From Escherichia coli (GTDB taxonomy: Bacteria; Pseudomonadota; Gammaproteobacteria; Enterobacterales; Enterobacteriaceae), in the NCBI RefSeq assembly GCF_003334815.1, contig NZ_QOWO01000073.1: a stretch of 5,353 nucleotides of DNA; one strand, given 5' to 3'. A model generated the notes under the pieces. It made no database searches, was not told the origin of the DNA, and saw only the letters and a program-made list of their open reading frames with translations. Every line of letters starts with the position of its first letter. Positions within the stretch are counted from its first letter, which is position 1. The position numbers were made by a program, and so were the translations under genes. Below, piece by piece: positions 1,769-1,801 of the stretch.

Positions 1769-1801
1769 AAACGGCAGGAGATAATATCCTGCCGTTTTTT
1801 A
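1769..1801. terminator. Bidirectional intrinsic terminator between convergent gltX and yfeD
   Basis: Stem 1772..1779 (CGGCAGGA) pairs with 1787..1794 (TCCTGCCG), 8 bp, loop GATAATA. Flanked by A5 upstream (1761..1765) and T6 downstream (1795..1800), so each strand sees hairpin plus U-tract. Sits 18 nt after the gltX stop and directly after the yfeD stop. Confidence 0.7.

Follow-up and report, generated by a model that had tools for sequence, protein, structure and literature searches.

The genes gltX and yfeD of Escherichia coli run toward each other and are separated by a spacer of 51 nt between their stop codons, which holds one hairpin. The question raised by this locus is whether that single element ends the transcription arriving from both sides, serves only one of the two genes, or acts at a level other than the transcript. 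The window analyzed here is a 5353-nt stretch of the E. coli chromosome, and its gltX–yfeD spacer is identical to that of K-12 MG1655; MG1655 coordinates (g) were converted to window positions (w) as w = 1751 + (2519257 - g). A sequence-only reading of the window had proposed that an 8-bp stem-loop with an A-tract on one side and a T-tract on the other should terminate transcription in both directions, limiting antisense readthrough into an essential synthetase gene, and it had named 3′-end mapping on both strands and folding of positions 1769–1801 as the checks.

The converging genes and the hairpin between them

The open reading frames of both genes were identified in the window and named by RefSeq annotation of identical E. 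coli sequences. gltX (336..1751, +) encodes glutamate--tRNA ligase of 471 aa and ends with a TAA codon at 1749-1751; yfeD (1803..2195, -) encodes a YfeC-like/MerR-type regulator of 130 aa and ends with a TAA codon at 1805-1803. The earlier placement of the two stop codons at 1751 and 1803 is thus correct. Upstream of yfeD and on the same strand lies yfeC (2197..2556, -), also named in RefSeq from identical sequence. The remaining features of the window are valU (tRNA-Val, 2..77, -), one tRNA-Ala(GGC) gene (2777..2852, +), and pdeA (to 5250, +). The tRNA-Ala(GGC) gene is present as a single copy in the window and in strain AREA_487, whereas K-12 MG1655 carries a tandem pair (alaX, alaW), so the alaW operon is polymorphic in copy number. 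Near-consensus sigma-70 sites with 11/12 matches were returned by the promoter scan at 95-122 (-), upstream of valU, and at 2716-2744 (+), upstream of tRNA-Ala, and a terminator-like one-way hairpin was returned by the pattern scan at 2860-2883 (+), 3′ of the tRNA-Ala gene. A search of the window against Rfam matched the two tRNAs and no family at the gltX/yfeD hairpin.

Read from the gltX stop codon, the spacer consists of TTAGCGTGT-AAAAA-GAT-AAA-CGGCAGGA-GATAATA-TCCTGCCG-TTTTTT-A-T, followed by the yfeD stop codon. The GC-rich 5′ arm CGGCAGGA (1772..1779) and the 3′ arm TCCTGCCG (1787..1794) enclose a 7-nt loop, GATAATA (1780..1786), which differs in a second E. coli allele. Both arms are evident from sequence, pattern scan, and folding, and they are additionally marked by compensatory changes and pairing across species, as described below. 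The core stem comprises 8 bp with 6 G-C pairs (1772-1779 with 1787-1794), in agreement with the stem put forward earlier, and the flanking tracts are likewise as had been described. Upstream of the core, the A-rich tract TAAAAAGATAAA (1760..1771) is composed of AAAAA at 1761-1765, then G, A, and T, then AAA at 1769-1771, and its minus strand encodes the U-rich tail on the yfeD side, UUUAUCUUUUUA. Downstream, the T-rich tract TTTTTTATTTAT (1795..1806, +) forms the U-tail on the gltX side and is composed of TTTTTT at 1795-1800, A at 1801, and then TTTAT..., with the yfeD stop codon (1803-1805) lying within the tract. With the additional pairs formed by AAA at 1769-1771 and TTT at 1795-1797, the stem reaches 11 bp. 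The distance from the yfeD stop codon is 8 nt to the GC core and 5 nt to the stem extended by the AAA/UUU pairs.

In the pattern scan, the 11-pair stem (6 G-C pairs, loop 7) scored as terminator-like on both strands, and it was the only site in the window to be flagged on both. Folding of 1769-1801 gave -17.8 kcal/mol (z -6.8) on the plus strand and -17.1 kcal/mol (z -6.2) on the minus strand, with 0/200 shuffles being as stable. With the standard T-tail weighting, UUUUUUAUUUAU on the plus strand scored 5.16 and UUUAUCUUUUUA on the minus strand scored 3.70, the latter corresponding to the 99.5th percentile of a background of random 15-mers drawn from the collected loci (median 0.46, 99th percentile 3.22). 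The U-run on the gltX side is clean, whereas the tail on the yfeD side is interrupted (UUUAUCUUUUU, UUUAUCUU); free of the interruption (A1768T, G1766A), the yfeD-strand tail would read UUUUUUUU. On both strands, therefore, the stem and loop lie within the ranges described for intrinsic terminators (about 5-14 bp and 3-8 nt, respectively), with a U-rich tract directly 3′ of the stem, and the placement of one hairpin between convergent genes, preceded by an A-tract and followed by a T-tract, is that of a bidirectional terminator. Since an A-tract also aids a one-way terminator by lengthening its stem, the tract alone is no proof of use in both directions.

RNA 3′ ends, readthrough, and Rho

Published maps from two independent data sets place RNA 3′ ends at the hairpin on both strands. 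In the TRS analysis of RNAtag-seq of MG1655 in LB, the 'Primary' 3′ end of gltX is assigned to 2519207(-), equivalent to window position 1801 (peak 2519202-2519212; R=0.977), and that of yfeD to 2519243(+), equivalent to 1765 (peak 2519239-2519249; R=0.708), both rows carrying the same hairpin in the fold column (PMC10687069 Supplementary Data 3). In the TRS re-analysis of the Term-seq set of Dar & Sorek, which comes from BW25113, has coordinates converted to MG1655, and holds termini significant in 3/3 replicates, the ends are located at 2519204(-) for gltX (window 1804; R=0.994) and at 2519244(+) for yfeD (window 1764; R=0.856) (PMC10687069 Supplementary Data 2). In these data, R is defined as L/(L+D), i.e., 1 minus the local readthrough of read starts, and is not a true termination efficiency (PMC10687069).

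The mapped 3′ end of the gltX mRNA (1801..1804, +) thus lies 7-10 nt past the GC core and that of the yfeD mRNA (1764..1765, -) 7-8 nt past it, and in the RNAtag-seq data each is exactly 7 nt beyond the core and within its U-rich tail. Such positions correspond to the distance of about 7-9 nt past the stem at which the RNA 3′ ends of intrinsic terminators are expected in vivo, with the qualification that in such maps a terminated end looks the same as one left by 3′-to-5′ trimming up to a stable hairpin. Between the two transcripts there is an overlap of ~37 nt that spans the whole hairpin (ends 1801 + and 1765 -), as is expected of a bidirectional terminator; the gltX mRNA extends no further than the yfeD stop codon, and 13-14 nt separate the end of the yfeD mRNA from the gltX stop codon. 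The two directions are, however, unequal, with R being 0.98-0.99 on the gltX side and 0.71-0.86 on the yfeD side. The proposal of termination from both directions is accordingly borne out insofar as 3′ ends are found on both strands, but it has to be modified in that the yfeD direction is the weaker one and the hairpin is not the sole barrier.

Beyond the hairpin, Rho-dependent regions are recorded on both strands. DirectRNA-seq with and without bicyclomycin (BCM), evaluated in coarse 800-nt windows, identified a region antisense to gltX at 2519434(+), centered at about window position 1574 (-), with upstream/downstream reads of 138/20 without BCM and 137/104 with BCM (Rho score 5.24), and a region antisense to yfeD at 2519097(-), centered at about 1911 (+), with reads of 95/43 and 83/117, respectively (Rho score 3.11) (Adams et al. 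2021, PMC7815308 supplementary file 2). In both directions, the regions are called about 110-190 nt beyond the hairpin and not at the hairpin itself, which is below the resolution of the 800-nt windows. When Rho is inhibited, the reads antisense to gltX increase 5-fold and those antisense to yfeD about 3-fold (PMC7815308), which implies that, in both directions, a real share of transcription gets past the hairpin or originates beyond it and is normally ended by Rho. In the supplementary files of the same study examined here, gltX and yfeD are found in the Rho table (file 2) and not among the Term-seq 3′ ends (PMC7815308). Searches of the literature for gltX together with yfeD, or for a gltX terminator, returned nothing specific, and a search for in vitro or reporter measurements of the element found none.

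The coverage of the coding sequences is 1.10-1.29 for gltX and 0.11-0.15 for yfeD, a ~10-fold difference (PMC10687069). Given this difference, the larger flux stopped at the hairpin is that from gltX toward yfeD/yfeC, and the emphasis of the sequence-only reading on transcription entering the synthetase gene falls on the smaller of the two. The hairpin may shield gltX from antisense transcription.

Transcription may also start close to the terminator. A promoter-like site was detected by the promoter scan inside yfeD (1889..1926, -), with a -35 element TCGACA at 1926-1921 and a -10 element that is either GATAAT at 1904-1899 (16 nt) or TAATAT at 1902-1897 (18 nt). This site matches a published start site on the yfeD strand at 2519119, equivalent to window position 1889 ('Nearby TSS', PMC10687069 Supplementary Data 4), and the coverage of the yfeD 3′ UTR is about 2-3 times that of its coding sequence (PMC10687069). 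A transcript running from 1889 to the terminator would be an RNA of ~125 nt; we consider it improbable that the shared terminator ends a third transcript of this kind. If it did, perfect complementarity would exist between the last ~37 nt of that RNA and the 3′ end of the gltX mRNA, and a stable form could be a 3′-derived small RNA or could pair with the gltX 3′ end, coupling the stability of the messages. The hairpin loop itself contains a -10-like hexamer, GATAAT, at 1780-1785 (+), which is missing from the second E. coli allele. A start site published at 2519217(-) corresponds to window position 1791 (+), 6 nt downstream of this hexamer and within the 3′ arm (PMC10687069). Either this site is an artefact that dRNA-seq produced at a structured 3′ end, or a weak promoter starts an RNA antisense to yfeD there. 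In the latter case, the terminator itself could launch an antisense-yfeD RNA from 1791 that is then stopped by Rho, which would fit the Rho-dependent region at about window position 1911.

Conservation of the hairpin and its interruption in related species

Species-representative genomes were scanned with the C-terminal 199 aa of GltX, which yielded 80 Enterobacteriaceae loci; from the window and these loci, a set of 64 species was drawn in which gltX converges on a yfeD/yfeC-like gene. The spacer between gltX and its partner measures 26-67 nt (median 49), and one GC-rich hairpin is present in every spacer (64/64), with 25 distinct stem sequences, for example, CGGCAGG/CCTGCCG, GCGGG/CCCGC, GCCGGT/ACCGGC, CGGCGGGC/GCCCGCCG, and GGCCTCC/GGAGGCC. 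The 100% pairing obtained in the base-anchored count is circular, because the hairpins were chosen as hairpins, so this count informs only on how many different stems exist. RNAalifold returned no structure from a MAFFT alignment of 58 hairpins, in which the stems of different families were misaligned, and the count of pairs was limited to the 43 sequences that can be aligned by sequence. Among these, pairing is present in 93.4% of cells, as against 28-68% with the partner columns slid; compensatory changes occur in 5 pairs (22 cells), and the covariation score was equalled by 0/500 shuffles.

The flanking tracts are conserved to different degrees. Within the 8 nt after the core, the median number of T residues is 7 (at least 6 in 59/64), and within the 8 nt before it, the median number of A residues is 6 (at least 5 in 49/64 and at least 6 in 36/64). 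Runs that adjoin the stem typically measure 6-8 nt for T (mode 7) and 2-3 nt for A (mode 3). In 50/64 species, the gltX-side tail outscores the reverse tail (median 4.91 versus 3.52; Wilcoxon p = 1e-8), with the reverse tails still exceeding the 95th percentile of the background in 55/64. The short A-run relative to the long T-run and the lower reverse tail score thus point to selection acting mainly on the gltX direction, which is that of the highly expressed gene. The placement of the hairpin is also asymmetric: it lies a median of 21 nt after the gltX stop codon and 6 nt from that of the partner, which usually falls within the T-tract. A control for the A-tract, in which a co-directional gene lies 3′ of gltX, was sought, but no such locus was found, as those that lack yfeD (L038, L055, and L076) have a convergent ORF downstream of gltX as well.

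In E. coli itself, the allele of the window is present at an identity of at least 99% in 3066/5426 complete genomes. A second allele has the loop AGAGATACC and keeps a 7-bp GC stem, with folding energies of -16.2 (+) and -20.6 (-) kcal/mol. Over window positions 1500-2300, which take in the 3′ part of gltX, yfeD, and yfeC sequence, the E. coli genomes fall into two allele groups, with 3071 records at an identity of at least 99%, 2220 at 90-95%, and few in between, and YfeD is ~94% identical between the two groups. In ESBLEC_MG32 (L003:2088-3413, equivalent to window position ~2087), yfeD is interrupted by an element with an IS110-family IS5075 transposase. A 198-kb plasmid, NZ_CP070008.1, carries two YfeC-like regulator genes that match window positions 2088-2300. 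The number of yfeC/yfeD-like paralogues beside gltX varies, from three in L037 (3156-4293) to one in Buttiauxella and others (L065, L066, L073, L075, and L077); thus, the gene whose stop codon adjoins the terminator is not always a yfeD orthologue.

In four species, the gltX/yfeD terminator is split by a dispersed MITE-like element (L020:3104-3279, L039:3118-3304, L080:3119-3299, and L081:3125-3311). About 135-145 nt lie between the hairpin copies, with terminal inverted repeats of roughly TGATGACAAA...TTTGTCAGCA; the inserts of L039, L080, and L081 contain two internal perfect hairpins, and that of L020 contains REP-like sequence instead. Each insert lies between direct repeats of the 20-24-nt hairpin native to that species (identity of 100% in three species and 95% in L020), which results in the order A-tract, hairpin, insert, hairpin, T-tract. 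The locus of a related Enterobacter, L036, looks like the empty site. The same family of insert occurs at two unrelated Klebsiella loci (L084:1180-1365 and L085:1145-1325), again between the copies of a duplicated hairpin that is specific to the locus. The element has no match in Rfam and no copy in the 5426 E. coli genomes, and no paper on it was found in a literature search. It looks as though this element targets terminator hairpins and duplicates them upon insertion. Matches to RtT RNA (RF00391) were found at L080:895-1008 (-) and L081:871-997 (-), downstream of the last tRNA of a valU-type operon. These are unrelated in sequence to the MITE-like insert and have the same duplicated-hairpin layout, with a copy of the tRNA 3′ end and terminator hairpin (CCACCAATGTA-AAAGGCGCCCTAAAGGCGCC) on each side.

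Mechanism, alternatives, and relation to known terminators

Taken together, the hairpin is very probably a classical bidirectional intrinsic (Rho-independent) terminator that is common to the two converging transcription units. In the mechanism we propose, a polymerase arriving from gltX would synthesize CGGCAGGA-loop-UCCUGCCG followed by UUUUUUAUUUAU, and the hairpin would fold in the exit channel at the moment when the active site holds the weak rU:dA hybrid, such that the transcript is let go about 7-10 nt past the stem, at window positions 1801-1804. A polymerase arriving from yfeC-yfeD would synthesize the reverse complement, which forms an equally stable hairpin, and then UUUAUCUUUUUA, with release at 1764-1765. 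Each strand's U-tail would thereby be templated by the A-tract of the opposite strand. Termination rather than trimming would give rise to both sets of 3′ ends, independently of protein factors, leaving the gltX and yfeD mRNAs with complementary 3′ ends of ~37 nt, neither of which would enter the coding sequence of the other gene. Transcripts that escape would be ended by Rho within a few hundred nucleotides.

On the gltX side, the arrangement is canonical and highly conserved. The weaker performance in the yfeD direction may be ascribed to the interrupted U-tail and to the yfeD stop codon, which precedes the GC core by just 8 nt, so that a ribosome terminating there may interfere with folding of the hairpin. 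The spacing between stop codon and terminator is reported by Li et al. 2016 to affect termination, and this is the basis on which an effect of the ribosome is suggested here. The element is a clear case, mapped by experiment, of one hairpin insulating converging units, with a strong direction, a weak direction, and Rho as a back-up. Its importance is small beyond correct annotation; the series of 64 species and 25 stems may help in terminator prediction.

The interruption in the yfeD-side tail (UUUAUCUU) and the lower R on that side speak against a two-way reading, and they are compatible with a one-way gltX terminator through which yfeD transcripts are read, to be ended by Rho in antisense gltX and trimmed back to the hairpin by exonucleases. 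On the yfeD strand, a Rho-dependent region is indeed found ~190 nt past the hairpin (2519434(+), Rho score 5.24; PMC7815308), R on the yfeD side is 0.71-0.86, and the A-tract is less conserved across species. Nonetheless, the yfeD 3′ end is found 7 nt past the GC core in a U-rich tail and mirrors the gltX end in the RNAtag-seq data, and the reverse tail score of 3.70 exceeds the 99th percentile of the background, with 55/64 species above the 95th. Trimmed Rho-dependent ends are also said by Dar & Sorek 2018 to abut the stem as a rule, with no U-tail, which counts against this explanation; on balance, we regard it as unlikely. In a different scheme, that of Ju 2019 and Wang 2022, the hairpin would mainly pause the polymerase, and a head-on collision combined with a rear-end collision from a trailing polymerase would bring about release. 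The bidirectional terminator of ynaJ-uspE has been shown to act in this way, and highly expressed convergent pairs surpass lowly expressed ones in the efficiency of bidirectional termination (10.1101/2022.10.23.513370); gltX and yfeD do converge, and their 3′ ends overlap over the hairpin. However, the hairpins of that class are described as unlike intrinsic terminators and as poor in one-way transcription, whereas the gltX/yfeD hairpin has canonical U-tails on both strands. Moreover, with yfeD being read ~10 times less, few polymerases from gltX would meet a partner, and yet R on the gltX side is 0.98-0.99. Release by collision is thus very unlikely as the main mechanism, although collisions could add to the weaker yfeD side.

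An inverted repeat acting at the DNA level, i.e., a palindrome bound by a protein or a REP/BIME-type repeat, would account for a perfect 8-bp repeat in a spacer that adjoins two genes for DNA-binding regulators. It would not lead one to expect RNA 3′ ends at the hairpin on both strands, nor a stem that is replaced between genera with its complementarity kept (25 stems), which is the signature of a structure and not of a recognition sequence, and its probability is close to negligible. With an 81-nt query, the median number of places per E. coli genome was 1, and no REP consensus was found; the element was therefore rejected as a REP/BIME repeat, for which many copies and that consensus are expected.

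The bidirectional intrinsic terminator identified here as the best explanation resembles known members of its kind in several respects: a single GC-rich hairpin, preceded by an A-tract and followed by a T-tract, occupies the short spacer that separates the stop codons of two convergent genes, and 3′ ends on both strands fall a few nucleotides past the stem. No essential difference is apparent, as unequal directions, such as those of gltX/yfeD, are common among these elements. Examples have reportedly been provided by the tonB-P14 terminator of E. coli (Postle & Good 1985), by genome-wide predictions (Lesnik et al. 2001), and by terminator libraries (Chen et al. 2013). With the bidirectional sites described by SEnd-seq (Ju et al. 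2019; Wang et al. 10.1101/2022.10.23.513370), the locus shares a convergent pair, an overlap across the hairpin, and sharp 3′ ends. The collision class is presented as unlike intrinsic terminators and as poor on templates with one promoter; at gltX/yfeD, by contrast, both strands carry canonical U-tails, and termination is efficient for the gene that faces a weakly expressed partner. A parallel also exists with the suppression of antisense transcription by Rho, in that Rho-dependent regions antisense to gltX and yfeD lie just past the hairpin (Adams et al. 2021, PMC7815308). These regions form a second barrier, 110-190 nt away from the hairpin, and are not the hairpin itself. Such suppression by Rho is also said to have been described by Peters et al. 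2012.

We take the gltX/yfeD hairpin to be 'the gltX terminator' of the original work on gltX by Breton et al. 1986 and Brun et al. 1990, in which the alaW operon is reportedly located about 800 bp downstream of that terminator and the element is said to have been treated as a terminator of gltX only. This spacing fits the tRNA-Ala gene at 2777-2852 in the window. The use of the same terminator by yfeD is known from the later genome-wide 3′-end maps. The gltX/yfeD element is therefore an already known and ordinary terminator, recorded as the primary 3′ end of both genes in genome-wide maps (PMC10687069).
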